Below are positions 2,786 through 40,572 of a DNA stretch of 64,000 nucleotides, one piece after another. The stretch lies in IMG/VR virus record IMGVR_UViG_2029527006_000005; one strand, given 5' to 3'. Positions within the stretch are counted from its first letter, which is position 1. Every line of letters starts with the position of its first letter. Made by a program: the position numbers and the translations under genes. The notes below the pieces were generated by a model. That model was not told the origin of the DNA and searched no databases. It was given only the letters and a program-made list of their open reading frames with translations. Origin of the DNA: a virus. Taxonomy: Duplodnaviria; Heunggongvirae; Uroviricota; Caudoviricetes.

Positions 2786-2787
2786 TA

Positions 2788-3305: not shown

Positions 3306-3319
3306 GATAACCTCATTTG

Positions 3320-3407: not shown

Positions 3408-3409
3408 GT

Positions 3410-3480: not shown

Positions 3481-3481
3481 C

Positions 3482-4135: not shown

Positions 4136-4551
4136 TAGTAACGCCTCCTGTCAACTGAAAACTTATTAATCTCTTCTTTAGCTAAACCTAAAAGAAGTTC
4201 AAGTTTATGTACTAACTCATATGGTAACACATTATCACTCATTGTGCTAGCTTGAAATCCATCTTCTTCAGAATGTGGTACGTAGTACTCAGAAGTACGG
4301 TTAAGATTTCTTAATAATTGTACCATCACCAATGGACTTAGGGGATTATTATTCTGTTGAAGTACTACCTCTTCTTCTTTAGTTGGCTCCAAATCAGGAA
4401 GAGATATAGTATTTGTAAGACGATCAAACGTAATACGCTGACTTGCACTCCTGATGAATAAACGGTGTGGTGCACCGCTTACGAAGCCGAAAGTGAAGTC
4501 TTCAGCAAACATCATATCATCAAATAACTTTCTGTACAACTCAATGTTCAC
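4135..4551 (-). CDS. hypothetical protein (138 aa)
   Basis: ORF track. Confidence 0.5.
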   Translation of the reverse strand: MNIELYRKLFDDMMFAEDFTFGFVSGAPHRLFIRSASQRITFDRLTNTISLPDLEPTKEEEVVLQQNNNPLSPLVMVQLLRNLNRTSEYYVPHSEEDGFQASTMSDNVLPYELVHKLELLLGLAKEEINKFSVDRRRY

Positions 4552-5041
4552 GATTCATCTCCGCAAAAAACATTTCACGTGCACGTTCTACTACATCAAT
4601 GTAGAACCCCAAGTCAGTACAGGAAAGCTGGAATCTTTCTTCCTCGGAATTATACGTGTATTCCGCATCACTGAACCAGAATCCATTATACTTCAATAAA
4701 ATCTGTGAGTCAACTGCATCATGCAATTCATCACGATAATATTCAGGTGGAACACCGTACTCACTAGTGTTGAAGTGAAACATCTGGTAGATGCTCAATT
4801 CTTTAAAATCCGGGAGATAATGGAAATGGTAATTTTCAGTGAATAGATGTACTTCATTTGAATTGGAACTATTACAGTACTCACTGAAGTACTGTTCAGT
4901 GTCAACAGTGTCACGATATCCGTCTTCACCATCGTCTACCCAAACAAAAAAAGATGGCTCATCTAAGAAACCATCTTCCAAATTGTCTAAATCTTTACTT
5001 AGGTGTTCAAACATACCTTTTTGTCTGATCAGTTCTTTCAT
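4541..5041 (-). CDS. member of the EEE-FFQ-ST small-protein family
   Basis: C-terminal SEEERFQLSCTDLGFY matches the motif shared by at least 14 other ORFs in the window. Confidence 0.55.
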   Translation of the reverse strand: MKELIRQKGMFEHLSKDLDNLEDGFLDEPSFFVWVDDGEDGYRDTVDTEQYFSEYCNSSNSNEVHLFTENYHFHYLPDFKELSIYQMFHFNTSEYGVPPEYYRDELHDAVDSQILLKYNGFWFSDAEYTYNSEEERFQLSCTDLGFYIDVVERAREMFFAEMNREH

Positions 5042-5044
5042 AGT

Positions 5045-5461
5045 TCAGTACCTCATATTAGATATATTAGTCCACACTTCATGAACTTCTGACCGTTCTG
5101 TGAGTTTTTGCATCTCATTATAAATTTCAATAATTATAGTGATTTCATCACGAGATATATAATTATTAAGTTCTTTTAAAATATCAAATGTAAACCCAAA
5201 TGGTAAATCTATTCTACGGGTTGAAGAATTACAAAGAGAAAGAACTATTTTAGTTCTTAGAAGAAATATAGTACTGTATTCTTCTTCTGTTCCATTATAT
5301 AACTTAAAACGCCATATTAAATTTCCATCATATGGACTCATTACATTACTGTACTCTACTAAATGTAGATTTTCATGTACAGTAAAATGCCAGTTATGTA
5401 AGTCTCTTAATGTTTCAGTACTCTTAATATGAAAATATAAATCTATTAAATCATTAATCAT
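5045..5461 (-). CDS. hypothetical protein (138 aa)
   Basis: ORF track. Confidence 0.5.
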   Translation of the reverse strand: MINDLIDLYFHIKSTETLRDLHNWHFTVHENLHLVEYSNVMSPYDGNLIWRFKLYNGTEEEYSTIFLLRTKIVLSLCNSSTRRIDLPFGFTFDILKELNNYISRDEITIIIEIYNEMQKLTERSEVHEVWTNISNMRY

Positions 5462-5689
5462 ATAGTACCTCTTTAATTAAAATAAATCACTCAAGGCATA
5501 GCCAGTCGTTCCCAATCTTTACCACATAACCCTTGCATTTATCTTTCAGGTAGCGACCCTGATACATCCACGATGTTATGAGATTCCCTTATATTATACT
5601 TCGAAATATAATATATTGATGAGTGATTTAAAATCGTGTGAACATCAACAGTAGATGGGACTGATGACCTCGGATGCCGAAGCAGTTGC

Positions 5690-5735
5690 CTGATGTTCGT
5701 GGTAGGAAGTCTTGGATTCGAACCAAGTAATCGAG
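5690..5735 (-). other. isolated tRNA-like T-arm plus CCA element inside a 470-nt non-coding stretch
   Basis: reverse complement CTTGG-TTCGAAT-CCAAG-ACTTCCT-A-CCA with no matching 5' acceptor strand nearby. Confidence 0.25.
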
Positions 5736-5943
5736 CGATCAACCTCAACCTAACCCCACGCATACTGTCTCCATTCCAAATCGCTTCTAGACGCTTTCTG
5801 GACTCTCTGAGAGTAATTGCCGGTTCAACCTATTGTAATGCTACTAACTCGGCTCCCCATTACCGTACTTGGACTTGACCTTATTACAGGTTGGTGTGTA
5901 TGCTTAACCGCTTATACACTAGCTTTTTGCTTTCACATTGTAG

Positions 5944-6015
5944 TACTCTATAACAGAATCGAACTGTTCTTTCTGGCGTGAAAGGACAACGTCCTAACCG
6001 ATAGACGAATAGAGT
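5944..6015 (-). ncRNA. tRNA-like element (perfect acceptor and T-arm, non-canonical D/anticodon region)
   Basis: acceptor ACTCTAT/ATAGAGT, T-arm AACAG-TTCGATT-CTGTT, internal hairpin CTTTC-ACGCCA-GAAAG with a 6-nt loop; no encoded CCA. Confidence 0.35.
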
Positions 6016-6017
6016 AG

Positions 6018-6094
6018 TGGTACGGCGTACTGGATTTTAACCAATAACACCCGGATTAAAAATCCGGTGCTCTAAACAATTGAGCTAACACCGC
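6018..6094 (-). tRNA. tRNA-Lys (anticodon UUU)
   Basis: reverse complement GCGGTGT-TAGCTCAATTGTTTAGAGCA-CCGGA-TTTTTAA-TCCGG...; acceptor pairs; encoded CCA. Confidence 0.75.
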
Positions 6095-6096
6095 AT

Positions 6097-6173
6097 TGGC
6101 AGTCCTGACGGGCTACGATCCCGCGACCTCTCGCGTGACAGGCGAGTATTGTGACCAACTCAACTACAGGACT
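6097..6173 (-). tRNA. tRNA-Asp (anticodon GUC)
   Basis: acceptor AGTCCTG/CAGGACT, anticodon stem CTCGC/GCGAG with loop CTGTCAC, T-arm CGCGGGATCGTAGCCCG, discriminator G plus CCA. Confidence 0.75.
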
Positions 6174-6189
6174 AAATTTATGAGGATTA

Positions 6190-6855
6190 TCAATCCTCAT
6201 CTTTTCTCAAACGATCATGTTCTTCTCTGTGACAATTTGCACATACTAAAACACATTTATCTAATTCCGGTTGCATCGTCTTAAATGAGCGTGTAGAACC
6301 AGTTTTGGATATTGAGAAATCTTTTTGCGTAGGATCTAAATGGTGAAATTCAAGGGCTGCTATGCATTTATCATAACCGCACATGGTGCATTTACCACCT
6401 TTATATTCTACTGCTTTCAATTTAAGTTGTCTGCGATGTTCGGTAATTTTCGCATTCTTACATGGCTTACATACGTATCTACCATTATTATATGGTGAGT
6501 ATTCACATTGGTGAATATCACAGAACTTACCTTTATTGCTGACAACTTTATATGAATTTTCTTTTCCAAGAGTAATAGATTCAGATGATGTTCTTATTTG
6601 AATTCCGTTACGCTTAAGTACTGAGAGTATTGTATTTCTCGCACAAGAAAATTGTTTTCTAATTTCATTGGCTGATTTCCCAGAATTATACAAATCAATG
6701 ATTTCTTGTTCTGGTAGTTTCTTCCTCAATGTCTCCGCACGTTTTCGTTTGGATTCATCTGAGTGTACTCTCGTTTTATTAAAATGAGATAATGAACAAC
6801 TTCTGTTACAAAACTCATCATTTGTGGTGTGTTTACCACAATGTTTACATTCCAT
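6190..6855 (-). CDS. HNH endonuclease with zinc-ribbon and HTH modules
   Basis: C-terminal EFHHLDP...CANCHREEH HNH motif and multiple CxxC pairs; central NSGKSANEIRKQF...RNGIQIR HTH-like segment; sits between tRNA genes. Confidence 0.7.
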   Translation of the reverse strand: MECKHCGKHTTNDEFCNRSCSLSHFNKTRVHSDESKRKRAETLRKKLPEQEIIDLYNSGKSANEIRKQFSCARNTILSVLKRNGIQIRTSSESITLGKENSYKVVSNKGKFCDIHQCEYSPYNNGRYVCKPCKNAKITEHRRQLKLKAVEYKGGKCTMCGYDKCIAALEFHHLDPTQKDFSISKTGSTRSFKTMQPELDKCVLVCANCHREEHDRLRKDED

Positions 6856-6921
6856 GTATTAACCTCTGACATAATAAATCTTTTCTTTATTTATGTCAAT
6901 GGATCATTTAAGGAATGTAAG

Positions 6922-7010
6922 TGGCGGTTCCTGCTGGATTCGAACCAGCGGTGGAGATTTCTCTCGACAGCTTAACAGGCTGGCATCATCGGCCTCTCGA
7001 TCAAAGAACC
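6922..7010 (-). tRNA. class II (long variable arm) tRNA, anticodon loop reads CTGTTAA (GUU?); possibly Tyr/Leu-derived
   Basis: acceptor GGTTCTT/AGGAACC, T-arm GCTGG-TTCGAAT-CCAGC, variable hairpin GAGA-GAAA-TCTC, encoded CCA; the anticodon assignment is uncertain. Confidence 0.55.
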
Positions 7011-7013
7011 TTG

Positions 7014-7094
7014 TGGTCGGTGTGAGAGGATTCGAACCTCTGAAAACCCCTCCGTCCCAAACGGAGTGCTCTGACCAGACTGAGCTACACACCG
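7014..7094 (-). tRNA. tRNA-Pro (anticodon UGG)
   Basis: acceptor CGGTGTG/CACACCG, anticodon stem CTCCG/CGGAG with loop TTTGGGA, T-arm AGAGG-TTCGAAT-CCTCT, CCA. Confidence 0.7.
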
Positions 7095-7222
7095 ATACTG
7101 AAATCCATTTTTGTTTTTTTATATCCGAAAAAAGTAATTGCTGTTGGATTTCGTTTTACTAGAATCTATTTTGTTTTCACCATTGAATTTTGAATTTAAT
7201 TGCTGTTAGATTCTAAATTACA

Positions 7223-7528
7223 TTATAGCTGAATATTTCCAACTTGTAAAGTCGTTTTCTTAGCTTCCGCTGGTACTGGCTCGTTTACTGGAACATCCTC
7301 TATATTGTTTGTTGTGGACTCTTCAGGGACTTCATCAAGAAGAGTACCGTTACGCATTTTGATTAGTACTTCAGGAATGATACCCTTCTGTACGTCATCA
7401 TACATTGAAACTACTGTTTCTATACAAGCACAAAGTTCACGTACTTTGTACTGATAACCTTGAGGAAGAGGTTTGACAACTTCAAGTACTTCCTCAAGTT
7501 TTTGTAATAATTCTTTATGTACTGACAT
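7223..7528 (-). CDS. hypothetical protein (about 101 aa)
   Basis: track ORF 7223..7615 trimmed to the ATG at 7526-7528, which follows AGAGGT. Confidence 0.45.
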   Translation of the reverse strand: MSVHKELLQKLEEVLEVVKPLPQGYQYKVRELCACIETVVSMYDDVQKGIIPEVLIKMRNGTLLDEVPEESTTNNIEDVPVNEPVPAEAKKTTLQVGNIQL

Positions 7529-7648
7529 AGTTACCTCTAAGGGGTAGTAATATACCTTTGGGTCTTTCGGGATTACTCGATTACGTCCGGTACTACAAAC
7601 CCTTATTCCCAACATAAAGGACGCCTATGAGCTTAACCAGTATATTAC

Positions 7649-7897
7649 TTATTCTTTAGCCAAACGAATCTCATTGCCAGTTTTGTAAGCAATAACTCCG
7701 TCACCTAGATCATTACGACCTTCGACTAGATTACTAGCATCTACTGTCTTGGTATGAACACCGTCAGCCATAGCTGCTACTGACATAATTGTTGATACAA
7801 GTTCTTCGATTTTAACTGCGTACTGTTCAGGTAGGTCTTGAGTTGCATCAATAATACCTTGTGCGTATGCTGCTAGTGTTTCTAAACGTTCGTTCAT
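7649..7897 (-). CDS. hypothetical protein (82 aa)
   Basis: ORF track. Confidence 0.5.
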   Translation of the reverse strand: MNERLETLAAYAQGIIDATQDLPEQYAVKIEELVSTIMSVAAMADGVHTKTVDASNLVEGRNDLGDGVIAYKTGNEIRLAKE

Positions 7898-7905
7898 ATA
7901 TAGCC

Positions 7906-7989
7906 TTTAATTAATGGTGTGGGATGATGGATTTGAACCACCGTACCAATCGGAGTGGATTTACAGTCCACCACATTTAACCGCTCTGC
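7906..7989 (-). tRNA. tRNA-Tyr (anticodon GUA)
   Basis: acceptor GTGGGAT/ATCCCAC, anticodon stem GTGGA/TCCAC with loop CTGTAAA, long variable arm, T-arm GGTGG-TTCAAAT-CCATC, CCA. Confidence 0.7.
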
Positions 7990-8007
7990 CAATCCCACAT
8001 TGTTATT

Positions 8008-8379
8008 TTATTTATTTCTCAATTTCCATAGTACTTCAGAGAGATATTCATAGAATTCCCAAGAGAATCCGATATCTTTAGTAGTACTCATTTGGAAATG
8101 TTCTTCTTCTGACTGTGGCATTTCAAATTCACAACGATCATAGATATCATCTTCTGAATCACCAGTTTCGAACATTACATCCAAAACAAAACTTATGTCC
8201 CAAGTTTTACGATTAAGAGCAATTACAAATCTTACACTTGCTGTATCTTCGTTACTACGCCACTTCAATATTAAATTATCGAGGTATTGTATTTTATTAT
8301 ACGAAGAACTCATGTTAGTACCATTTAGGAAGTTTTTAATTTCGCGGAGTACTACTTTTTCAAAATCATCAAATGTCAT
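8008..8379 (-). CDS. EEE-FFQ-ST family protein
   Basis: C-terminal SEEEHFQMSTTKDIGFSWEFYEYL; tandem paralog of the next gene; trimmed to an internal Met to avoid overlap. Confidence 0.55.
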   Translation of the reverse strand: MTFDDFEKVVLREIKNFLNGTNMSSSYNKIQYLDNLILKWRSNEDTASVRFVIALNRKTWDISFVLDVMFETGDSEDDIYDRCEFEMPQSEEEHFQMSTTKDIGFSWEFYEYLSEVLWKLRNK

Positions 8380-8381
8380 AA

Positions 8382-8738
8382 TTACTCCATACGAAGTATA
8401 TCTTCTAAGTACTGGTAGAATTCCCAACTGAAGTACATATCTTTTACTGTACTCTCTTGAAAGTATTCTTCTTCAGACTCAGGTATATTTGATACCCAAA
8501 ATGATGTTCTGTCATTACCATCATCCATTTTCAGTACTATATCAAAGATAATTCTTCTGGTAATATAGTTGTATGATAACTGTACTTCAGCATCGCTATT
8601 ATCTTTTGGGGTTCTGAATGTTAAAATTATGAGTCTGAAAAGATCATAATTAGTATCTCTGTCTTTACGAGCAGGACCACAATTAAAGAAGTAATCGATT
8701 TGTTCTCTGAACATTACTTCCAATTCAGGACGTGTCAT
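8382..8738 (-). CDS. EEE-FFQ-ST family protein
   Basis: C-terminal SEEEYFQESTVKDMYFSWEFYQYL. Confidence 0.6.
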   Translation of the reverse strand: MTRPELEVMFREQIDYFFNCGPARKDRDTNYDLFRLIILTFRTPKDNSDAEVQLSYNYITRRIIFDIVLKMDDGNDRTSFWVSNIPESEEEYFQESTVKDMYFSWEFYQYLEDILRME

Positions 8739-8799
8739 AGCTAGAATCCTTTTTTTATTTTCTAAGCATGAAATTTGATTGCTGTAAGATTCTGTAATA

Positions 8800-9075
8800 C
8801 TATAGTTTATCAGTTATAGTGATAAAAAATTCAGTCATTTTTAAACCTTCATATTTTATTGATGATTCTATATTTTCATCATCACTTATTGTGAAAGTTG
8901 CAGTGTTTGTTTGCGTCTGACGACATGACCATGATTTAGCATAATAACCATATTTTTCTTTGATTTTCTTTTGAATTTCATAACAAATTGTACGGTCATC
9001 AACTTCATCATTAGAGTCATGAATATATTCAAAATTTGTTCCATCTTCACTAATATTAAAAAAATATTTATGCAT
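8800..9075 (-). CDS. hypothetical protein (91 aa)
   Basis: ORF track. Confidence 0.5.
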   Translation of the reverse strand: MHKYFFNISEDGTNFEYIHDSNDEVDDRTICYEIQKKIKEKYGYYAKSWSCRQTQTNTATFTISDDENIESSIKYEGLKMTEFFITITDKL

Positions 9076-9090
9076 TTATTATTCCAGATT

Positions 9091-9183
9091 TGGAGGTAGA
9101 TGTGAGATTTGAACTCACGAGCCGCTATTAACGGCTGCCAATTTTCAAGATTGGTGCAATAAGCCAGCCTCTGCCAATCTACC
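9091..9183 (-). tRNA. tRNA-Ser (anticodon UGA)
   Basis: acceptor GGTAGAT/ATCTACC, anticodon stem ACCAAT/ATTGG with loop CTTGAAA, long variable arm CAGCCGTTAATAGCGGCTCG, T-arm GTGAG-TTCAAAT-CTCAC, CCA. Confidence 0.75.
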
Positions 9184-10006
9184 TAGGTTTAGTCCAATAC
9201 CCTCGTGGGGGTTTTGATATATTATATTTTTTACAACGCTTTTCAATGGCTTTATCACTAACACCATACATCTTAGATAATGTTGATGCTGGATATTTCC
9301 ATATCATTTCTGAAAGTTCATCTTTTGAAATTTCAAATTTTTGTTGTGATTTTTTTGCACAAGTTTGAGAACAAAATTGTTGATCTCTGTGTTCGTGCAT
9401 ACGTTCAAATATAACACCACATGATTTACATGTCAAGCTGTGAATTTGAACTATTCTCTTTTCTTTGGGTGGTAATTTGGGTTTAACCAACTTACGTTCT
9501 TTCTTGACCGGAGTTATATTATTGTACAGTGATACAAAATTATCACCATATATACTTTTAACTTGGTCTAAAATTTCTATCATTTCGTATTTTGTCAGTA
9601 CTGTAATATATGGAAAATTATATTTTTTTATATAAGAAATTTCCGTTTCGTAACCTTTTATCTCAATTACGCTTTCATTATTAATGATGAAATCTGGAAT
9701 ATATTCATGTGACTCACCATCGATCGATGTATAAAACAATTTCTCTCGATCATATCGTTTCACTTCAATTTTATGATATTCACAATATAAAATATATGCA
9801 AGTTCCCATGAGCTATCACAAAAAATTCCTTTATACCACCCTTTCAAACCACGACCAGAACCTTTACGATAACCACCATGATTGGAAGACGATATATTTT
9901 TATTTGGATTTAATTTGCAAAATGCCTGGTGGGTTGCAATACCACGATCTTTAAATCCTTTATTACAATATTGACAATTTTTCATAAACATACCATTCGA
10001 ACTCAT
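9179..10006 (-). CDS. putative PD-(D/E)XK-type homing endonuclease with N-terminal zinc finger and C-terminal HTH
   Basis: CQYCNKGF...HQAFC; SSWELAYILYCEYHK...YIPDFII...VIEIKGY (D...ExK pattern); C-terminal ELSEMIWKYPASTLSKMYGVSDKAIEKRCKKYNISKPPRGYW is shared with the HNH gene at 25668..26186. Confidence 0.55.
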   Translation of the reverse strand: MSSNGMFMKNCQYCNKGFKDRGIATHQAFCKLNPNKNISSSNHGGYRKGSGRGLKGWYKGIFCDSSWELAYILYCEYHKIEVKRYDREKLFYTSIDGESHEYIPDFIINNESVIEIKGYETEISYIKKYNFPYITVLTKYEMIEILDQVKSIYGDNFVSLYNNITPVKKERKLVKPKLPPKEKRIVQIHSLTCKSCGVIFERMHEHRDQQFCSQTCAKKSQQKFEISKDELSEMIWKYPASTLSKMYGVSDKAIEKRCKKYNISKPPRGYWTKPR

Positions 10007-10224
10007 ATATGTTTATTTATCAAATCGTCTTGATTTTTAATTAAAAACTGGATTCATTTTGTTTGTACTATACAGGCCGCTACTGCTTATCTTTCACCTA
10101 TAAAGCCACCGTAATTTTCCGCACGTGTTCTGCGTTATATGCCCGAAGACATAACATACTTCATATAATTGTTTGAAGGTTTGCTGTATGAATCCGCTTG
10201 CTAGCGTTTTTTATCTTTCGATAA

Positions 10225-10262
10225 TTATATTATATCACTATTTTTCACTGTTTGTCCCAAGT
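10225..10262 (-). promoter_or_regulatory. conserved sigma70-like promoter (copy 2)
   Basis: attatatcac (10229-10238) ... tgtcccaag (10253-10261); 18-nt spacer. Confidence 0.55.
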
Positions 10263-10277
10263 AATTTTTAAATTTTC

Positions 10278-10556
10278 TTAGTTATTTTCGGAATCTTTTA
10301 ATAGTTCCTGATAGTGTGCGTATTCTTCTTCGTTTAGTTCAATACCTTGAGCAATACATTGTTCATAGTACTGAATATCATTACCTGTGCTATGTAGCTC
10401 ACCTACATACACAGTACTGGAACGAATAGGAATGGCATATGTACCATCAATTGATTCTAGTACTGTGTTAAGATCCCCGATTGCCGCACCTGTTTCTGTG
10501 CACTGTTCGATAAAATTATCGAGGTCTTTGAAATTGTCTTCGTTTAAATATTCCAT
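10278..10556 (-). CDS. hypothetical acidic protein (92 aa)
   Basis: ORF between two promoter copies. Confidence 0.5.
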   Translation of the reverse strand: MEYLNEDNFKDLDNFIEQCTETGAAIGDLNTVLESIDGTYAIPIRSSTVYVGELHSTGNDIQYYEQCIAQGIELNEEEYAHYQELLKDSENN

Positions 10557-10581
10557 TTTATTTTCTCCCTGTTGTTGACTC

Positions 10582-10618
10582 TATTATTATATCACAAAAT
10601 TATGCGTTTGTCCCAAGT
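10582..10618 (-). promoter_or_regulatory. conserved sigma70-like promoter (copy 3)
   Basis: attatatcaca (10586-10596) ... tgtcccaag (10609-10617); 17-nt spacer; overlaps the 3' end of the upstream gene. Confidence 0.6.
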
Positions 10619-11110
10619 TTTTTGCATGATTTTCTTATAATTATCATGTGCTTTCTGGACAATCAAATCAACATACTGTTTGTACTCGTCAAATATAATA
10701 ATCTCACCCATCAATTCAGCTTGGAAACGTTCTTCTTCAGTATCGTAGTAAGGTACAATCATATGTGAACCATCTAAATGGTTCTTGGGGCGTTCGGATG
10801 CTAGAAACAATGCTTCATTAGCGTTGTGGATTGTTGAATACGTTCTGTATGTACTTTCTAATGTCAAAAAATCATCCATTACATTAGGTACGTACATAAT
10901 GAGTTCCCCATTTTGAATTTCTACAACATTAAGAGGTGAACTTTTACCACCAGTACTATTACTATAATTGTAGTCCAATGTTTGGATACGATATAAAATC
11001 GTTGTTTTTCCAGTACGGTCAGTTTTAATTTCAGTTTGTACTGGCTCATCACTAAGAGCATACTTCTTTAAGATATACATGTACTCTTGATTAGTCATAT
11101 AGTACTCCAC
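10592..11110 (-). CDS. EEE-FFQ-ST family protein (divergent)
   Basis: C-terminal YYDTEEERFQAELMGEIIIFDEY. Confidence 0.5.
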   Translation of the reverse strand: MEYYMTNQEYMYILKKYALSDEPVQTEIKTDRTGKTTILYRIQTLDYNYSNSTGGKSSPLNVVEIQNGELIMYVPNVMDDFLTLESTYRTYSTIHNANEALFLASERPKNHLDGSHMIVPYYDTEEERFQAELMGEIIIFDEYKQYVDLIVQKAHDNYKKIMQKTWDKRIIL

Positions 11111-11114
11111 ATTT

Positions 11115-11143
11115 ACTTAAAAGTGTTGGGGCTTATGCCCCAA
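11115..11143 (-). terminator. rho-independent terminator
   Basis: hairpin TTGGGGC-TTAT-GCCCCAA (11126-11143) followed on the minus strand by CACTTTTAA; directly after the stop of 11147..11632. Confidence 0.5.
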
Positions 11144-11146
11144 CGT

Positions 11147-11632
11147 TTACCCTAGAATAACTTCTTCAGTCTTGCTGTCTTTAGTCTTCTTAGGTTGCTT
11201 TCCCTTACCATCAGTAAGTTCAAGTTGATAAATCTGTTTGATATTTTTAATACTTGGACGCTTATTGCGTAGGTCGTAAGTACCTTCCTTACCATTGATA
11301 CGGTAGATGTTACCGTAGGAATAGAACTTATTGGAAGTCCAGATTTCAATCTCTGGTTCATTACGCCAATGAATTGCGGATTCGTAAGAATCGTATTTCT
11401 CTTTAGGGTAGAAACGTAAAGTATGTTCTGTGCGTTGAACGTAGTACAGTTCAGCCTCTACTTTACCAAGCAAGATATCAATCTTGTCATTGGTTTCTTT
11501 TCCGTACTTGAGAGAACCCATTAGTACTTGCAAGCTAATGAAAGTGGTGCTTCCCATGCTAATAGTACTGAGTAGAAGCCCAATACCGAATAGGCCAACC
11601 AAACTGACACAACCAACAATGAATAACTCCAT
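11147..11632 (-). CDS. membrane-anchored protein (161 aa, N-terminal TM)
   Basis: hydrophobic N-terminus MELFIVGCVSLVGLFGIGLLLSTI. Confidence 0.55.
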   Translation of the reverse strand: MELFIVGCVSLVGLFGIGLLLSTISMGSTTFISLQVLMGSLKYGKETNDKIDILLGKVEAELYYVQRTEHTLRFYPKEKYDSYESAIHWRNEPEIEIWTSNKFYSYGNIYRINGKEGTYDLRNKRPSIKNIKQIYQLELTDGKGKQPKKTKDSKTEEVILG

Positions 11633-11633
11633 T

Positions 11634-11876
11634 TTAGGCTCCTACGATTTGCTGAATGTACTGTTCAGACATGGAAATGAATTTTACCTCTAGACCACGA
11701 ATTTCATAGTTAAGAGATGTGATAGTACTTGAGATTGAAGATAGTTCTTTACCTTCTTCTTTGGTACGTTCTTCTTTATCGTTTAGTACATGCCATGCTG
11801 ACCATTTCTCATCACGAACAACTTTTAGGTCTTGAATACGATGGTAAGTACTTCTTAATTCTTCAGTAGTAATCAT
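11634..11876 (-). CDS. hypothetical protein (80 aa)
   Basis: ORF track. Confidence 0.5.
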   Translation of the reverse strand: MITTEELRSTYHRIQDLKVVRDEKWSAWHVLNDKEERTKEEGKELSSISSTITSLNYEIRGLEVKFISMSEQYIQQIVGA

Positions 11877-11930
11877 GACATATCCTTCTATTTGAATTAA
11901 AATGCCACCACATTGTGGTGGCTTAACGTA

Positions 11931-12146
11931 TTACTTACGTTTGTTTTTGCGAGTTAGATCGTGTAGCTCGCTTTTGAGTTCATTCTTCCACTCTAGAAGA
12001 TGCACAAAAGTGATCTTCTTAACATCGGGACCAGAATGCTGATCAAGCATCGCTTCAACCTGAGAAAGTTGGAACTTGATGTAGTTCACAGTACGGTCTA
12101 GGTCAGAGATATCAGCTAGGCGGGTTTCGGTTTTAGTGTTAGACAT
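11931..12146 (-). CDS. hypothetical protein (71 aa)
   Basis: ORF track; downstream of promoter copy 4. Confidence 0.5.
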   Translation of the reverse strand: MSNTKTETRLADISDLDRTVNYIKFQLSQVEAMLDQHSGPDVKKITFVHLLEWKNELKSELHDLTRKNKRK

Positions 12147-12226
12147 ATTTGTAAAATCCTTATTTTACGTTTTTCAAAGTACTCTCAACATGAGAGCGGT
12201 AAGTTTACGCTTTACATCCGTCGATG

Positions 12227-12263
12227 ATTTATTATATCACATAATCAAGCGTTTGTCCCAAGA
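12227..12263 (-). promoter_or_regulatory. conserved sigma70-like promoter (copy 4)
   Basis: attatatcaca (12231-12241) ... tgtcccaag (12254-12262); 17-nt spacer. Confidence 0.6.
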
Positions 12264-12277
12264 TTCTGTGAAAAATT

Positions 12278-12362
12278 TGGGAGCGAAGGAAGGAGTCGAA
12301 CCTTCACGGTAGCTTTCCGACCTCAGTTATGCACATGCCTTGTCTACTGAATCGCCTGAGAA
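12278..12362 (-). ncRNA. tRNA-like element (T-arm, acceptor-like 3' end and CCA; non-canonical body)
   Basis: reverse complement ...GAAGG-TTCGACT-CCTTC-CTTCGCT-C-CCA; a 5-bp stem CTCAG/CTGAG encloses 30 nt; no canonical cloverleaf found. Confidence 0.3.
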
Positions 12363-12374
12363 CAACGCTCATTA

Positions 12375-12404
12375 TTACTTAAAATCGGGGGTTTGTCAAC
12401 CCCC
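12375..12404 (-). terminator. rho-independent terminator
   Basis: hairpin GGGGGTT-TGTC-AACCCCC (12387-12404) followed on the minus strand by GATTTTAAG; just after the stop of 12414..12935. Confidence 0.5.
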
Positions 12405-12413
12405 TTGAAACTA

Positions 12414-12935
12414 TTAGTCAGAACAGGTAACGATGATCTTGCCCTGTACTTTAGTAGTACCTAGTGGGAAGTCTTCTGCGTTTACGTTGATTTTAGGTTG
12501 CAAATCAATAGTACCGCTCTGGGTGGAAAGACGCTGTTCGTTACGAGCTACGTTCCACGCTTGTTCAGTAAAGCCAGCACCGTTCACACTACTGAATAGT
12601 GAAGAGGTACTTGTACTGGTGTTTAGTAGGTCATTACTGAAAGTAAAGCGGTTTGCGTTATCAGTAATCTTAGCTTCCGAAATCTTCCAAGAGATTTGGT
12701 TAGCGTTAGTTTTAAACGCAAAGCGTACTGCACCATCTTGAGAAGCTGATTCACCAGCAGCCAAGATGCGACCGATTTGGGTAGAACCATTTGCAAAGCC
12801 AATACCACAAGTTTTAACATTGTTGGTACGCTGGGCTTCCCATACTTGTTCGGAAGCCGAATAGTTAGGATTAGCAGACGCAGAAGATGATAATACTAAA
12901 GCAATAGCTGCACCGATGATAGCAATTTTTTTCAT
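12414..12935 (-). CDS. secreted protein (173 aa, cleavable signal peptide)
   Basis: MKKIAIIGAAIALVLSSSASA signal peptide; Ser/Thr/Asn-rich; Cys pair (KTCGIG ... VTCSD), fimbrial-subunit-like. Confidence 0.55.
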   Translation of the reverse strand: MKKIAIIGAAIALVLSSSASANPNYSASEQVWEAQRTNNVKTCGIGFANGSTQIGRILAAGESASQDGAVRFAFKTNANQISWKISEAKITDNANRFTFSNDLLNTSTSTSSLFSSVNGAGFTEQAWNVARNEQRLSTQSGTIDLQPKINVNAEDFPLGTTKVQGKIIVTCSD

Positions 12936-12936
12936 G

Positions 12937-13302
12937 TTATTTTCCTACAGTTAATGTACGTTGTTCCATAAGCTGGAGTCTCTTTTCCAACTCTTTGATT
13001 TTCATTTCTTTCTCTTTAACAACAAGGTCATACAAGCGGTTACAGTCTACTTTAGAACCACTATCCCCGATAGGAATAGAGATACCGACATAACCACCTT
13101 TATCACTTGTTTGGAAACCATAATCACTGGAGTCACTACCATATACCCCTGCGTTTACAGTTGTTTGAGCTTTTGATGTTTCACACATCATATCACCCGA
13201 TTGAATCCGGTCACGACTTTCAGCGGTATTGTTTGCAATGTAAGGCATATCTGCAAATGCTGAAGTACTGAACAGTAGTCCTGCAAAGATTATCTTTTTC
13301 AT
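12937..13302 (-). CDS. secreted protein (121 aa) with C-terminal coiled coil
   Basis: signal peptide MKKIIFAGLLFSTSAFA; KEKEMKIKELEKRLQLMEQ. Confidence 0.55.
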   Translation of the reverse strand: MKKIIFAGLLFSTSAFADMPYIANNTAESRDRIQSGDMMCETSKAQTTVNAGVYGSDSSDYGFQTSDKGGYVGISIPIGDSGSKVDCNRLYDLVVKEKEMKIKELEKRLQLMEQRTLTVGK

Positions 13303-13637
13303 TATAGCACCTTAATCACCAAACATACTTCTTGCTGGAACTGATTTGCTTGCCGCATACGCAGTGAGCAAATTGTAACTTTATCGTTCTCAATCAAACC
13401 GTTCGGTACGATGATTGGAAACTCTTCAACCGAACCCGGATACACCAACTGTTCATTACCCAATGGAATCCCATTTAAGGTAAACTTGTAGTATGCATCA
13501 TCAGGTGTGCGTAAATGCGTGATGATCATTGTGTCATTCACACCTTTACTTACAGTGTACTCTTCAGGCCAAAATTCATGTGCTTGTACTGAAGTACACA
13601 ACACACATCCCAGAACTACGCTTAAAAGTTTTTTCAT
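13302..13637 (-). CDS. secreted protein (111 aa)
   Basis: signal peptide MKKLLSVVLGCVLCTSVQA. Confidence 0.55.
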   Translation of the reverse strand: MKKLLSVVLGCVLCTSVQAHEFWPEEYTVSKGVNDTMIITHLRTPDDAYYKFTLNGIPLGNEQLVYPGSVEEFPIIVPNGLIENDKVTICSLRMRQANQFQQEVCLVIKVL

Positions 13638-13664
13638 TTTAAATCCTCATCGTTTTCTTGATGT

Positions 13665-13701
13665 GAATATTATAAGGGATTGGCGTTACCCTGTCAATCC
13701 C
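13665..13701 (-). promoter_or_regulatory. consensus sigma70 promoter TTGACA-N17-TATAAT with hairpin spacer
   Basis: minus strand TTGACAGGGTAACGCCAATCCCTTATAAT; tgtcaa at 13692-13697, attata at 13669-13674; spacer contains a GGG...CCC inverted repeat. Confidence 0.55.
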
Positions 13702-13714
13702 TATTTTTAAATAT

Positions 13715-13889
13715 TTTACGAATTCTGTTCTTTTTCTTTCCGTGCTGCCGATTTTACATTGTAGTCAGCTACATAATGACGCACGATTAGTACTGCAAGA
13801 ATACCCATCACTACCCAAATGATTAGTGCTTGTTGACCCATAATAGCTAGAATTGCCAGTACTGCTAGAGTTAGAATTGCTACAATCAT
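13715..13889 (-). CDS. small hydrophobic membrane protein (58 aa)
   Basis: MIVAILTLAVLAILAIMGQQALIIWVVMGILAVLIVRHY...; start preceded by AGAGGT; below the ORF-track cutoff. Confidence 0.4.
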
Positions 13890-13890
13890 A

Positions 13891-14121
13891 TTATACCTCT
13901 TTTTTGATAATGTTAATGATATCTACCTGCTCTAATCCAAAACGTTTTAGTGCAGCTTCTACATCGTACAAATTTACATACGGACTTAAGAATTCAACTT
14001 TCTCATGTGAGGTTGAGATAGATGATCCAGTACTGTCCATTAAGTGTTTAATGAACTGATGATAATTATCAATGTTTCCACTGTAATAATTGTCATTGAT
14101 TGCAAATAGTTTCACACACAA
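13891..14121 (-). CDS. hypothetical protein (76 aa)
   Basis: ORF track. Confidence 0.45.
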   Translation of the reverse strand: MCVKLFAINDNYYSGNIDNYHQFIKHLMDSTGSSISTSHEKVEFLSPYVNLYDVEAALKRFGLEQVDIINIIKKEV

Positions 14122-14405
14122 ATCCTCTTCGGTTTATGCTCGGTGTATCCATTTTGTTGTAGGACACGGCGAACTTGAACAATGTTAGAATCACGGATAC
14201 TCCAAGTTTCTTTGAAAGTTTCCGCTTCATTGTTTTCAATGATAACATTGTCAGTACTACTCGTTGTGCGAAAAGTATCTCTGATAATCTGCTGAACATC
14301 AGAAGGATCACGTGAGAACTCATTACCAACGAAGATGTGTTCTTGAACTACATCCTCATTGTTGAAGTATGATAACACAATAATCTTGGTCATGTCAATC
14401 CCCAT
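14112..14405 (-). CDS. hypothetical protein (about 98 aa)
   Basis: track ORF 14112..14459 trimmed to an internal Met to avoid a 65-nt overlap. Confidence 0.4.
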   Translation of the reverse strand: MGIDMTKIIVLSYFNNEDVVQEHIFVGNEFSRDPSDVQQIIRDTFRTTSSTDNVIIENNEAETFKETWSIRDSNIVQVRRVLQQNGYTEHKPKRICV

Positions 14406-15216
14406 ATTCATGTTTCGTAAGATTTGGCACTGGAAGGAACTCATCAACATCCATACCATCTTTGACGAGGATTGCTCCAGTGAATCTCATCATATCACGT
14501 AGACGACAATTGTCAACCACATTTTCTAACAAAGCCGTATATTTGTCGTAATCCTTCATAAAGAACTTGGTTCCCAAGAGTTCACGTCCACTACGTTTTA
14601 CGTACCCAACAACTTCACCATGATAACGGATAACACCAGTTACTGTACCATAGACGAAATAATCTTTAGATATATCTTCAAACACGTTGTCAATGCGTAG
14701 CACATTGGGGTCTAAAGAGTTCAAGTACTGAGATACTTTTTCTTCAGTTACGTAATCAAATTCTGGAATACCACCTAAGTACTCTATAATCTGTTCCACT
14801 AGTATTTCATTTTGACTCGTACTGAGTACTGGTGAATCATCTAGAATATCAAAAGACATAGGTTCTAACAATGCTTGTTTAACTTTAGATGCCTCGAACC
14901 AAACAGTACCGTTCATATGAACAGCCACTTCAGGCCAATCCATCTCAAAGGCAGCAGTATCATCAAATTCATATTCCCAGATATCCTGGGGTCTGGTAGC
15001 AGGAATGAATTTTGGTTCTTTATCACTTTTACCAAAAAAGATATATACCTGCTTATAGATACCCAAATCTGATTCTTCATCAGTTGGGCATTCATTAATA
15101 GGAAAAGCCATTACCCACTGTGCAGTATCCAACGCCTTATTAATCTGACGCTGAATATTGCGATCTGAATTGTTTAGCGATGTTTGGATACGGCGTAGTA
15201 TGGTATTCTCAATCAT
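14395..15216 (-). CDS. hypothetical protein (273 aa)
   Basis: ORF track. Confidence 0.55.
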   Translation of the reverse strand: MIENTILRRIQTSLNNSDRNIQRQINKALDTAQWVMAFPINECPTDEESDLGIYKQVYIFFGKSDKEPKFIPATRPQDIWEYEFDDTAAFEMDWPEVAVHMNGTVWFEASKVKQALLEPMSFDILDDSPVLSTSQNEILVEQIIEYLGGIPEFDYVTEEKVSQYLNSLDPNVLRIDNVFEDISKDYFVYGTVTGVIRYHGEVVGYVKRSGRELLGTKFFMKDYDKYTALLENVVDNCRLRDMMRFTGAILVKDGMDVDEFLPVPNLTKHEYGD

Positions 15217-26200: not shown

Positions 26201-26282
26201 TGGTCCGGGCGGCAAGATTCGAACTCGCATACTCCAATTACTCGATTAACGACGGGTTAGAAGCCCGTTGAGATACGCCCGG
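26201..26282 (-). ncRNA. tRNA-like gene (aberrant; possibly Arg-UCU derived)
   Basis: acceptor CCGGGCG/CGCCCGG, T-arm GCGAG-TTCGAAT-CTTGC, CCA, hairpin ACGGG-CTTCTAA-CCCGT, but no recognisable D-arm; its 5' end coincides with the predicted TSS of promoter copy 5. Confidence 0.4.
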
Positions 26283-35271: not shown

Positions 35272-35362
<91 letters not shown>

Positions 35363-37157: not shown

Positions 37158-37350
37158 GTTTTTCTACGAATTCGAAGCAACCGCAGTATTTGCAACCTGC
37201 TGGCTCGTTATCTTCGTAGGAATCAAAATGTCGATAGTAGACATGACCACAAGTACACATACGGTGATCACCGTAGTTTGGATTGTAGGCCATATCAATC
37301 ACAATACGTTCAGTGATGATGTATGGTAGTTCCTCATTCTTCTGAGTCAT
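37144..37350 (-). CDS. small Cys-rich (zinc-binding) protein (68 aa)
   Basis: CTCGH...CKYCGC. Confidence 0.45.
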   Translation of the reverse strand: MTQKNEELPYIITERIVIDMAYNPNYGDHRMCTCGHVYYRHFDSYEDNEPAGCKYCGCFEFVEKLDNE

Positions 37351-37579
37351 TGTTTTCTTCCTCTAATTGTCTTGCAATATCTTCTTCGTACTTGCGTTCT
37401 TCCATTTCTTCAACGGATTGCATGATACTAGAGCAAATCTCATAGAGTTGATCATATGCACGGCGTTCGTATTGGTTTAGTTCATCAGGATCGAAATCCT
37501 CTTCCCACATACGTTCTTTGATTTCTTCCATTGCGGTAACTGTATTTTCGAACATACAGTATGACATGTTAATTCCCAT
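37334..37579 (-). CDS. hypothetical acidic protein (81 aa)
   Basis: ORF track. Confidence 0.45.
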   Translation of the reverse strand: MGINMSYCMFENTVTAMEEIKERMWEEDFDPDELNQYERRAYDQLYEICSSIMQSVEEMEERKYEEDIARQLEEENNDSEE

Positions 37580-38543
37580 GTGTCAAGTCCTCTGCTAGTT
37601 TAAGTATTCTTTCTTTTTTGGCAATCTTATCTACCCATTCAGCAGGGATACCATCAAGACCATAGAAAGCACCTGCAATCTGTCCTGTAATCGCCGCCAC
37701 TGTATCAGCATCATCACCTAAGTTTGCTGCAAGTAGGATTGCATCTTTGAAGTTTTTAGTACTATAGAAGCACCACAAAGCAGCTTCTAGTGAATCAAGC
37801 ACATATCCAGTAGAATGAATATCATCGCGTTCTTTATTCTTATATGATCCACCCATGATAGTTAGTATTTCGCGTGAAGTTACAATACCTTCCCAGACTT
37901 TTTCCGGGAATGAAAGTAATGAACGTTTTGACTGTTCTTCATCAGGTTCAACCCCATCCAATTCAATACGACCATTAATTGCACGGTTAAGTAGTACTGC
38001 AAACGCAATACACGATTCACGACATAAAGTACTAGCATGTGTGGTTGAACTGCTTAAATCAGCAGCATATACTAATGTAGAAAAGTCTTCAACTGTATTA
38101 GTATTGTAATAGATTGGAATTGGAGCCAAACGCATAAGACTACCATTTCCAGAATCTAGAAAATGTTCATTATTACGCAAAATTCCATCACGTATGTAAT
38201 TCATCAATGCATTACGTGTTGTCCCACCAATATCAAAACAATGACCATTAGAACTGCAATACCCATTTTTGTACCAATCAACATAATTTATTAGTTGTTC
38301 TTCTGACCATTTGATACTATCTTGAATATCATTTACATCGTAGTTTTCTAGTAAAGCATAGCCTAAGCACAATGCCATACTTGTATCATCAGTCCATTGG
38401 CCGGGATCTAATTGAAAAGGTCCACCACCAACCATATCAGTGATGTTCTCGTAATCCCGTTCTTTGAACTCTAAGGTAGTCCCAACTGCATCACCTACTG
38501 CTAATCCCATTAGGCAACCTTGCGTTCGATTTAGTTTACTCAT
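37569..38543 (-). CDS. ADP-ribosylglycohydrolase (ARH/DraG family)
   Basis: GCLMGLAVGDAVGTTLEF, GNGSLMRLAPI and LGDDADTVAAITGQIAGAFYG are hallmark ARH motifs. Confidence 0.8.
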   Translation of the reverse strand: MSKLNRTQGCLMGLAVGDAVGTTLEFKERDYENITDMVGGGPFQLDPGQWTDDTSMALCLGYALLENYDVNDIQDSIKWSEEQLINYVDWYKNGYCSSNGHCFDIGGTTRNALMNYIRDGILRNNEHFLDSGNGSLMRLAPIPIYYNTNTVEDFSTLVYAADLSSSTTHASTLCRESCIAFAVLLNRAINGRIELDGVEPDEEQSKRSLLSFPEKVWEGIVTSREILTIMGGSYKNKERDDIHSTGYVLDSLEAALWCFYSTKNFKDAILLAANLGDDADTVAAITGQIAGAFYGLDGIPAEWVDKIAKKERILKLAEDLTHGN

Positions 38544-38863
38544 TATATGTCTCCCATTGTATCATAGATGGATTTGACCAATTCCAATTGTGATTTAATT
38601 TGTTCCTTTAGATCTAATATAGATTCAGTAGCAGAAATATCACTATAACCACGAATGAGTTCATCGTTGGAATTAGTTAAATTACTTACTGAACGATAGT
38701 TTTTATGTCTATACGAATATGTCAAATAAAAGTGTTCGTGACTAACTGAAATATCATCAGTATATGGATGACCTGCTTCTTTCCATCCGGGAAATAACGA
38801 ATTAACTTCATTTAAGAGTTCAGTTATTGTTATCATTTTTATTCCTATTATCTGATTAGCCAA
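38543..38863 (-). CDS. hypothetical protein (106 aa)
   Basis: ORF track; first gene after the long leader. Confidence 0.5.
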   Translation of the reverse strand: MANQIIGIKMITITELLNEVNSLFPGWKEAGHPYTDDISVSHEHFYLTYSYRHKNYRSVSNLTNSNDELIRGYSDISATESILDLKEQIKSQLELVKSIYDTMGDI

Positions 38864-39427
38864 TCTTACGATTGTCTAAGAATTTTCGATTCTCTTACTC
38901 ACTTCGTTCGTATCGTATCTCAATTCATTTTGTACTGTTAATACTGACGAGGTTTGTTGAGGCAATTTCATCCCCCACAGGGGGAATGAAGACAATAAAA
39001 AAGTACTAATTAAAGTACTGAATATTGTTCTGACGCTGGTGGCATCGGAATTTTCGAATCGTGAATTTCTCTGAATTTTAGACGTAACTATAGCGTACTA
39101 AAATTGGTCAAAGAACGAAAGCGGGTTGCTCTGTTTCTCTCTATCACGGTCATGTGCAACGGTCGTAGTCTTACTACACTCACACAAAGCCTATTCGAAC
39201 AAGCTCTGTGTGCAACGCCTAAGCGTTTCCCTTAGCATATTGGTGAGTGACCTCATATGTCTATCTTGGAGCCTTAACGTGCCTTACGTTGCTCTTTATA
39301 GTGCCACATTGCCGCGAACGGGTTTCATCTGCACTTCGCATGTGTGGTCATGCTCATCGTCCCTTTACGTTTTCAAGGGTTTCGGTTTAATACGTCTGCA
39401 TATAGCAGCCACAATTGTTACATCTAA
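38864..39427 (-). other. 560-nt untranslated leader, candidate structured ncRNA
   Basis: no minus-strand ORF between promoter copy 8 and the next gene; contains a perfect 10-bp hairpin TTCATCCCCC-ACA-GGGGGAATGAA (38967-38990). Confidence 0.35.
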
Positions 39428-39464
39428 ATTTATTATATCACATTATTCGCCATCTGTCCCAAGT
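39428..39464 (-). promoter_or_regulatory. conserved sigma70-like promoter (copy 8)
   Basis: attatatcaca (39432-39442) ... tgtcccaag (39455-39463); 17-nt spacer. Confidence 0.6.
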
Positions 39465-39943
39465 TTTAACGCCCTCCTGATATCCTCTAATGTCTCAGAG
39501 AACCAATCATGTCCGTCAAATGGATTAATGACTCTACCATGCATGTAGTAGTAATGACAGAACGGTAAAGTACTGGAAATTAACATCTCTTGTAGTTTAG
39601 GATTCTGTGCAATTTTACATATAATCGCACCTTGCATCACTTCTATTGTTTCTTCAGTTAAGTATTTCTCAGTTCGATCGGACTCATAACTTTGTCCTTT
39701 AACTTTAGCATAAGAACCACTTAGCGTTCTCAAATCTTCATGTTTCTGTCCGGTTAAGTACCAATAGTAAAAGCCTTCCACTGAGTTGAATTTACCATAC
39801 TCTGTATACACGAACGGGGAGAATGCAAAATTTGATAGCATCCTCCCCAATTCGGTACGACCTTTACTATATGTATTAATGTGGGTAAATCCATCATCGG
39901 TTGGATCAAAGTATTCATACTTTTCCTGTTCCCATTCAAACAT
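39443..39943 (-). CDS. NADAR (YbiA/DUF1768)-like protein
   Basis: LSNFAFSPFVY...FNSVEGFYYWYLTG parallels YbiA FSNFAAWPI...SEHYFQAQKF; C-terminal region also aligns (ICKIAQNPKLQEMLISST / RAKFEQHAELRALLLAT). Confidence 0.5.
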   Translation of the reverse strand: MFEWEQEKYEYFDPTDDGFTHINTYSKGRTELGRMLSNFAFSPFVYTEYGKFNSVEGFYYWYLTGQKHEDLRTLSGSYAKVKGQSYESDRTEKYLTEETIEVMQGAIICKIAQNPKLQEMLISSTLPFCHYYYMHGRVINPFDGHDWFSETLEDIRRALKLGTDGE

Positions 39944-40572
39944 TATTCAGTATACCTATTATTTGTTAAATCATCTAGGATTGAATTTTTATATTGCGTC
40001 AAAACATTAACTAAATCAATCTCACCTGTATATTTTATAATAAGCCTTTCAGTTATTTCAATTTTTGCATTTTGCCATGCCCGATGTGCATCAAACTCAC
40101 TATAAAAACATCCAAGGTGCTTCTTTTTATGGTTTTCATGAATACACGCATGATAATGCTTATCTCGGTTTTCAACGTATGAAACACCAATAGCATATTC
40201 ACCCCGGCCTTTCTCACTTTTTAAAATTAAAGTGTTTATTTCATGAGGGACAAAAATGCATGTTTGTGGTGAATAATGTTTATTACCGGGAATTAAAAGG
40301 TCTTTGTCAATATCACGATCTTTATAATTTTGCTTCACTACCCATGATTTAAAATTAGTAAAGGATTTCCAATCTTCATGAATAGTAGTTCCGATATATG
40401 ATGGAAATTTATCTAGAAATTTTTCACTATAACAACGCTCTAAAATATTTCTCCATGTGGTGTATATAGGACACCTCCATACTTGTTTCGATTTACCATT
40501 CACAACTTCGGATTTTGCTATTGGTTCAGGGGAGTCATTGACTCCCACACCGTATATTAGTTTCTTTGGCAT
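39943..40572 (-). CDS. putative DNA-binding / HNH-like protein (209 aa)
   Basis: basic N-terminus KVWRCPIYTTWRNILERCY; HYHACIHENHKKKH; weak resemblance to phage mobile-endonuclease accessory domains. Confidence 0.3.
   Translation of the reverse strand: MPKKLIYGVGVNDSPEPIAKSEVVNGKSKQVWRCPIYTTWRNILERCYSEKFLDKFPSYIGTTIHEDWKSFTNFKSWVVKQNYKDRDIDKDLLIPGNKHYSPQTCIFVPHEINTLILKSEKGRGEYAIGVSYVENRDKHYHACIHENHKKKHLGCFYSEFDAHRAWQNAKIEITERLIIKYTGEIDLVNVLTQYKNSILDDLTNNRYTE

Follow-up and report, generated by a model that had tools for sequence, protein, structure and literature searches.

Two divergent, probably ADP-ribose-removing enzymes and a predicted structured non-coding RNA gene in a conserved neighbourhood of Rak2-like jumbo phages

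Phage T4 encodes a small free-standing protein, gp30.3 or AdfN, that frees phage DNA of ADP-ribose linked to guanine and overcomes DarTG1 (PMC11825919). Tri1, a type VI secretion system immunity protein, protects its bearer twice over: its N-terminal extension occludes the Tre1 toxin, and its DraG-like domain reverses arginine ADP-ribosylation (PMC8120803). NADAR domains have been noted in jumbo phages in general terms (PMC7824862), and large, elaborate RNAs such as ROOL and GOLLD occur in phages and mobile elements. Here we describe a locus at which counterparts of all three are found together. It lies in a stretch of 64,000 nucleotides (nt; the window) of IMG/VR record IMGVR_UViG_2029527006_000005, part of the ~350 kb genome of a Rak2-like jumbo phage, with the Salmonella phages Munch and 7t3 as its best DNA matches (~81%). 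A NADAR-like gene and a gene for an ADP-ribosylglycohydrolase (ARH) stand on either side of a predicted non-coding RNA (ncRNA) gene, and we hold it probable, with real reservations, that these form three separate minus-strand units (NADAR enzyme, free-standing ncRNA gene, ARH enzyme) and not one module with a leader.

Every gene in this part of the window is on the minus strand. The two enzyme open reading frames (ORFs) are present exactly as a preliminary description of this DNA had placed them, ARH at 37569..38543 (324 aa) and the NADAR-like protein at 39443..39943 (166 aa), 899 bp apart, and no minus-strand ORF of at least 40 aa was found in the 579 nt from 38864 to 39442. Transcription of this gap is predicted to start from a sigma-70-type early promoter (39432..39463, minus strand), whose -35 element CTTGGGACA (39455-39463) falls within the 3' end of the NADAR-like ORF and whose extended -10 element TGTGATATAAT (39432-39442) follows immediately on its TAA stop. 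From the predicted start at ~39425 to the end of the terminator U-run at ~38997, both ends being predictions, the ncRNA (38997..39425, minus strand) measures ~430 nt, and it closes on an intrinsic terminator (38994..39020, minus strand) formed by an AGUACU/AGUACU hairpin and U6. The 560-nt untranslated RNA proposed earlier matches the distance from the predicted start to the TTG codon at 38863 (~560 nt). Having a promoter, a covarying structure and an intrinsic terminator of its own, it is, as far as its sequence can tell, a free-standing ncRNA gene of bacterial type whose expression is predicted.

The gap folds well beyond chance (minimum free energy z = -4.73; 0/100 shuffles as good) into a predicted architecture of helices P1-P15 and long invariant single-stranded blocks, for example GCUAAGGGA (39228-39236) and CGACCGUUGCA...GAGCAACCCGCUUUCG (39112-39165), with invariant loops of 30 nt. 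Comparison drew on 28 distinct copies of the RNA at 60-99% identity. In 13 of them RNAalifold found compensatory changes at 35 of 73 pairs; its global fold, which held doubtful long-range pairs, was replaced for formal purposes by 10 helices and 56 pairs defined by hand on an alignment of 24 sequences. Standard pairs fill 95.8% of the cells of this structure, where shuffled alignments reach 82.4% and a control that slides the partners by 1-3 columns reaches 40-49%; double changes occur in half of the pairs (28/56, 168 cells), and the covariation score is 0.402, against 0.160 shuffled and at most 0.068 slid. On none of five measures did any of 500 shuffles reach the observed value. Related sequences may beat shuffles without any structure, yet the slid-partner control keeps that relatedness and collapses all the same. 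A long-range helix covaries through CGUGA/UCACG, UGUGA/UCACA, AGUGA/UCACU, UGCGA/UCGCA and CGUAA/UUACG, and the terminator stem (helix 9) through AGUAC/GUACU, AGAGAC/GUCUCU and AGAUCC/GGGUCU, ahead of a nearly invariant U-run. Six further helices (P1, P2, P7, P8, P10 and P13) covary by eye only and stand outside the formal count because MAFFT misaligns them. G-U pairs make up 106 of 1297 cells (8.2%); on the opposite strand these would be C-A mismatches, which identifies the promoter-sense strand as the one that folds. A long-range closing helix suggested by RNAalifold (GAUGAG/CUCGUC) was not adopted: both of its sides are invariant, and it is broken without compensation in XbC2, L021 (L numbers denote fetched loci) and RaK2.

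By blastn the element is present in 62 records of Rak2-like phages, most of which leave it unannotated or show calls of small hypothetical ORFs over it, and in IMG/VR its exact core pattern occurs only on contigs of ~350 kb or fragments of such contigs. Every clade genome examined has two full copies, a and b, ~80 kb apart, one of which is in the window, and RaK2 itself (L084, NC_019526) carries a divergent full copy (E 5e-45). The gene order recovered by tblastn from the fetched loci is orf122, NADAR-like, (HNH or large ORF), RNA, (small ORF), ARH, orf81; the NADAR-like/RNA/ARH/orf81 order is common to Munch, Hallingskeid, EJP2, L019, L026 and BF, and GAP32 and CBB have the same neighbourhood minus ARH. 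On the strength of this order the NADAR-like and ARH genes form a conserved neighbourhood with the RNA always inside it. The b copy sits elsewhere, between endonuclease VII and baseplate-hub genes, and the genes downstream of it are convergent (PBECO4, UE-S1, A4, BF, L024). The TGnTATAAT of the promoter is invariant across all homologous copies.

Some features of individual copies may be recorded here. In RaK2 (221-1117, 1220-1690) the RNA lies directly downstream of an annotated RNA polymerase sigma factor gene, and a hypothetical ORF245 has been called across it. A module of ~25 nt, UACAAnnnAGnUnnGUCnAAAAUU, takes alternative positions among copies (alignment columns 286-340 or 465-499): inside a variable hairpin after GCUAAGGGAG in the BF b copy, L028, L016, L030 and L024, after the CGCUUUCGUUCU block in most a copies, and in both places in the 121Q copy. 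A small hairpin ahead of the ribosome-binding site of the downstream ORF (38859-38876, minus strand) covaries between clades (CAAUC-GUAA-GAUUG or CAUUC-GAA-GAAUG) and is present only in copies with a co-oriented gene downstream.

Rfam 15, whose families include RNase P, transfer-messenger RNA (tmRNA), group I and II introns, ROOL, GOLLD and riboswitches, gave no match to the element at gathering score, at E<=10 (over 1.2 kb) or at E<=1 (with eight divergent copies), and literature searches turned up no description of it. A likeness to the S-domain of RNase P was considered and rejected: the local score against E. coli rnpB was 19, shuffles gave 18.3 +/- 2.2 (112/300 as high), and neither nhmmer nor Rfam produced a match. 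That the invariant blocks pair with rRNA (16S, 23S, 5S), three tRNAs or M1 of E. coli was likewise rejected: the best duplex (15 nt with four G-U pairs, 16S 1413-1427) is equalled in 2/100 shuffles, which is not significant over 63 comparisons. With ROOL and GOLLD the RNA shares a large and elaborate build, long invariant loops, occurrence in phages or mobile elements and a tRNA-rich surrounding; it differs in lacking any sequence or covariance-model similarity to them, in being smaller (~430-480 nt), and in its confinement to enterobacterial Rak2-like jumbo phages, at two copies per phage genome, and two bacterial islands. ColE1 RNA II and the T4 oriE, oriF and oriG RNAs resemble it as promoter-driven structured intergenic transcripts, several per phage genome, with a hairpin of G/C runs and an AU-rich segment; the window RNA differs from them in the intrinsic terminator that closes it and in the far stronger conservation of its secondary structure. 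In PA5oct, a distant relative of the clade, RNA-seq has defined long ncRNAs of a few hundred nt (ncRNA001 and ncRNA002, the latter of 451 nt) that are abundant; homology between them and the window RNA was rejected, as there was neither a profile match nor any of the invariant motifs. The RNA is a new family of a known kind, the large structured RNAs of phages whose function is unknown, and is unusual in being linked to bacterial islands.

These islands were met in two bacteria. Among 185,579 species-representative genomes none contains the exact core pattern; a scan of species genomes with the tail pattern gave 26 loci, of which only one, in Citrobacter, was real, and BLAST against 5,426 complete E. 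coli genomes gave a full-length copy in two. In E. coli LR-29-1 (L032, NZ_AP027515.1) the RNA (8620-9250) belongs to an island of ~10 kb between ffs and ybaA (4655-15000). The island also has a resolvase, an integrase interrupted by IS3 and, on the strand opposite to the RNA and ~2.4 kb away from it, an mSLOG-DUF4326 / DUF488 / DuOB operon; the RNA is followed by a 700-nt non-coding stretch that contains ATCGATCGTT-type repeats. Two genes of the operon, DUF488 and DuOB, match PDC-M45 (C and A), a candidate defence system listed by PADLOC, as they do in E. coli EEC_W5. In Citrobacter amalonaticus P55 (L053) the element (1845-7000) lies beside type IV pilus genes and reads large serine recombinase, two tandem TGGTATAAT promoters, RNA (3517-4132) and a CI-like repressor module. 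The LR-29-1 and P55 elements have a 118-aa protein in common (73% identity). Both bacterial RNAs have the TGnTATAAT promoter and retain 51/56 and 53/56 of the pairs; compared with the window they show 9 and 14 double changes. Pairs preserved through double changes, together with promoters, argue that the island copies are maintained as structured RNAs.

For the NADAR-like protein (39443..39943, minus strand), the PHROGs families (652, 11222 and 1017) are listed as of unknown function, and a single-sequence phmmer search of the PDB gave only a match to MecA, which is spurious. That it belongs to NADAR had been claimed before: the Pfam cutoff for NADAR/DUF1768 is missed, which to the letter would refute the assignment on the terms set in the preliminary description, but more sensitive comparisons reverse this and place it in the NADAR superfamily. 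A profile of 25 homologs against the PDB has as its sole significant match the NADAR protein 8BAU (E 3.2e-4), and hhalign aligns the family to T4 gp30.3 with 93% probability (E 3.4e-7; 35% identity over 84 columns); the fold is the YbiA-like NADAR fold, with YbiA as the best structural match. Schuller et al. (PMC11543638) define the NADAR catalytic positions as Glu, Lys and Glu/Asp (E125/D171), the third being His in phage NADARs. The catalytic Glu, for which a check had been proposed, is found as the invariant E56, aligned to E43 of 8BAU, E88 of E. coli C7 and E36 of T4. Seven residues further on stands Leu, where the phosphate-binding Lys (K50, K95 and K43) stands in the same three proteins. 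H130, in an H-Y-Y motif, is invariant, and T4 H123 lies at a matching distance from the last aligned helix, in a segment outside the hhalign alignment. With gp30.3 the window protein has in common the NADAR fold, alignable over the N-terminal two thirds, the motif LSNF..PF..G.F..EG that holds the catalytic Glu, and the small free-standing form, and H130 is its candidate for the His at the C-terminal catalytic position of phage NADARs. It differs in a C-terminal third that does not align and in the replaced Lys, the Lys four residues beyond not being conserved in the family. The protein is a divergent phage NADAR, distantly related to T4 gp30.3/AdfN, and a role against DarT1 is plausible.

Pfam PF03747 (ADP_ribosyl_GH) covers the product of the ARH gene (37569..38543, minus strand) from end to end (profile 1-287/287; E 2e-70, 238.2 bits against a cutoff of 26.2), and the catalytic motifs, whose loss on alignment would have spoken against the assignment, are all identical to those of Tri1: GDAVGT17, LEF24, WTDDTS50, FDIG103 and GDDADT276 are intact, comprising the metal-binding and catalytic Asp, Thr and Glu residues of the E-D-D set of DraG and Tri1 (PMC8120803). 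The closest solved structure is Tri1 of Serratia proteamaculans (PDB 6DRE, E 8e-77, chain residues 68-358 aligned). As the alignment starts only at Tri1 residue 66-68, the N-terminal extension of Tri1, the ~65 residues that plug Tre1, is missing, and of the two protective parts of Tri1 the window protein has only the DraG-like hydrolase domain. Further differences are that it scores under both NCBIfam equivalog cutoffs (Tri1, NF041672, 342.6 bits against 490; DraG, TIGR02662, 151.8 bits against 337), that no partner transferase gene lies near it, and that its bearer is a lytic phage. It is a DraG-like ARH, most likely arginine-specific, and neither Tri1 nor DraG proper. Both enzymes are new divergent members of known families; PADLOC returned no match for either.

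Read as three units, the locus would work as follows. The NADAR enzyme most likely strips from phage DNA the guanine ADP-ribose put there by DarT1-type host toxins, as its homology suggests. Host RNA polymerase would fire the early promoter just past the NADAR stop and produce the ncRNA of ~430 nt, ending at the terminator, with a conserved tail of ~50 nt behind it. The RNA may then be stable and act in trans early in infection, perhaps as a scaffold, as a decoy or in a complex with proteins, and it would matter enough to infection for islands to have copied it, either in order to exploit the phage or to hinder it. ARH, again by homology, most likely removes ADP-ribose from protein arginines, which would undo attack by transferases of the host or of competitors, or balance a transferase of the phage itself.

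The arrangement admits other readings, and several observations weigh against the one just given. The preliminary description had seen the RNA as a long leader, which in its full form would make it a riboswitch-like element or attenuator controlling ARH in cis, with NADAR, leader and ARH as a single ADP-ribose-reversal module. The a copy does lie on the same strand directly upstream of ARH, or of a small ORF and ARH, in the window, Munch, Hallingskeid, EJP2, BF and XbC2, and its position just upstream of ARH in five lineages could point to some read-through coupling; attenuators, moreover, work through a terminator inside the leader, EJP2 lacks the terminator hairpin (the only copy to do so), and CGUCAG on both sides of the terminator could permit alternative pairings. 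Yet a co-oriented downstream gene, to be expected of a cis-acting leader or riboswitch, is not constant among copies. The b copies of PBECO4, UE-S1, A4, BF and L024 face genes on the opposite strand, the RNA of GAP32, CBB and Yen9-03 stands upstream of unrelated genes without ARH, in the E. coli island non-coding sequence follows the RNA for 700 nt, no match to a riboswitch or leader family was obtained, and the full 430 nt are equally conserved in all contexts. The convergent and bacterial contexts tell against the leader, which we now regard as very improbable; the RNA, as predicted, is independent of ARH and bounded by its promoter and terminator. Somewhat less improbable, though still quite unlikely, is that the element is a replication origin with a structured primer RNA, whose AU-rich 3' part, C5/G5 hairpin and CGTCAG repeats act at the level of DNA and whose island copies borrow the phage replisome. 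It occurs as two full copies ~80 kb apart, without exception between genes and each with its own early promoter; the b copy adjoins recombination endonuclease, endonuclease VII and baseplate-hub genes, a location that presumably recalls the position of T4 oriE; and copies in mobile islands would fit satellites borrowing a helper origin. Conservation also runs past the terminator, where a tail (38944..38991, minus strand) made of the hairpin UUCAU-CCCCC-UGU-GGGGG-AUGAA and the 19-mer CCUCAACAAACCUCGUCAG is nearly invariant in all copies. No tail was found without the RNA, and it was not seen elsewhere as an independent signal. The conserved sequence past the terminator, and the loss of the terminator from EJP2, show our model of the transcript to be incomplete. 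CGUCAG occurs twice, at 39030-39035 (3' strand of helix P14) and at 38944-38949 in the tail, and the two are in the same state in 51/51 copies (37 CGTCAG, 13 CGTCAAG, 1 CTTCAAG in RaK2, 0 discordant), changing in concert as iterons do, which suggests a shared partner or an alternative pairing; the concerted change probably reflects only 2-3 independent events. Against an origin stand the depth of constraint on the RNA itself, which in its ten covarying helices and 8% G-U across 430 nt far exceeds what is known of origin transcripts, a covarying terminator that would stop the primer before any downstream unwinding region, and the want of an initiator gene linked to the element. For the preferred trans-acting ncRNA, stability and abundance are predictions and the role in trans is a guess.

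The counter-defence part of the proposal meets a rival of its own, which we consider unlikely, if less so than the origin. The NADAR-like protein might degrade soluble signals derived from ADP-ribose or be a YbiA-type N-glycosidase, and ARH might reverse a phage transferase of Alt/Mod type as a timing switch. Iyer et al. 2021 propose that the NADAR and Macro domains of jumbo phages degrade soluble ADP-ribose derivatives, and T4-like phages apply ADP-ribosyltransferases to host proteins (PMC7824862); YbiA is the best structural match of the window protein, and the catalytic Lys is not conserved in its family, K67 aligning to T4 K43 only through a gap of 4 residues and being K, Q or V among its members. 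Against our own reading, Pfam leaves the single protein below threshold, at 16.3 bits against 35.1 for NADAR (PF08719) and 13.4 against 36 for Phage_30_3 (PF08010), and of 25 family members 10 match Phage_30_3 and 6 match NADAR, all under threshold. The closest characterised sequence relative is nevertheless T4 gp30.3/AdfN, a hydrolase of guanine-linked ADP-ribose on DNA. As for a transferase, none was found among the neighbours or by a search with T4 Alt in the 64-kb window of the ~350 kb genome, a null result that weighs both on the timing switch and on our own proposal.

If the enzymes act in counter-defence, they extend the reversal of ADP-ribosylation-based immunity by phages to a jumbo-phage clade. 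The NADAR branch concerned has diverged so far that its members pass as hypothetical in standard annotation. The RNA is present twice per genome across several giant-phage genera, is unannotated or mis-annotated in the public records examined and is absent from Rfam; large structured RNAs of such quality are seldom found, and the study of them has more than once opened up new biochemistry. Its structure-preserving copies in two enterobacterial chromosomes provide a genetic handle on its function and hint that jumbo phages may be targeted by satellites or by RNA-based defences, a subject barely explored so far (2026 review, PMC13359090). A bolder proposal, which we consider unlikely, is that this large structured RNA forms a class of its own and serves Rak2-like jumbo phages as a factor essential early on, and that E. 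coli and Citrobacter islands captured it as a decoy, and hence as an RNA-based defence, or as a signal by which a satellite exploits its helper. Bolder still would be a tie of the RNA to the chemistry of NAD and ADP-ribose, for example as an NAD-capped or ADP-ribosylated RNA, an idea prompted by its place between the NADAR and ARH genes in phages and near the mSLOG-DUF4326 / DUF488 / DuOB operon in the E. coli island.

Three further ORFs adjoin these units. The ARH gene is separated from the gap by orf106 (38543..38863, minus strand), which the preliminary description did not list: it has 106 aa and a TTG start, its stop overlaps the ARH start, and an in-frame ATG at 38836 is preceded by AGGA. 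Its coding status is uncertain. It has no family match in the libraries, PADLOC included, and no homolog in related loci, even in L019, the closest relative, where the RNA is 93% identical; in other phages its position is occupied by unrelated small ORFs of 74-78 aa or by nothing. After ARH comes orf81 (37334..37579, minus strand), a conserved ORF of 81 aa that GAP32 and CBB retain despite the absence of ARH there. On the other side, an ORF of 209 aa (39943..40572, minus strand), whose stop overlaps the start of the NADAR-like gene, matches HNH homing-endonuclease profiles over their C-terminal half only (positions 194-398 of 420 in phrog_953). A copy with 58% identity occupies the same place in phage CBB (L023 2994-3620), and there is none in Munch or L019, which suggests a mobile or decaying homing endonuclease.

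The promoter of the RNA is one of a series. Its strict consensus, CTTGGGACAAA-N10-ATGTGATATAAT, occurs at nine minus-strand sites in the window (2758, 10237, 10594, 12239, 26299, 32823, 35379, 39440 and 59768), and in this count the site at 39440 is the eighth copy, the number it had been given before. Those at 12239, 10237 and 59768 have no obvious start codon at once downstream and may drive further ncRNAs. Among the numerous tRNA genes of the window, two are immediately preceded by the promoters at 35379 and 26299, and the promoter at 32823 lies ~50 nt ahead of tRNA-Thr. A tRNA at 26204-26282 (minus strand) is detected by Rfam (35.1 bits) but not by ARAGORN, and ARAGORN calls the one at 35272-35362 (minus strand) as Ser, with the unusual anticodon ACT.

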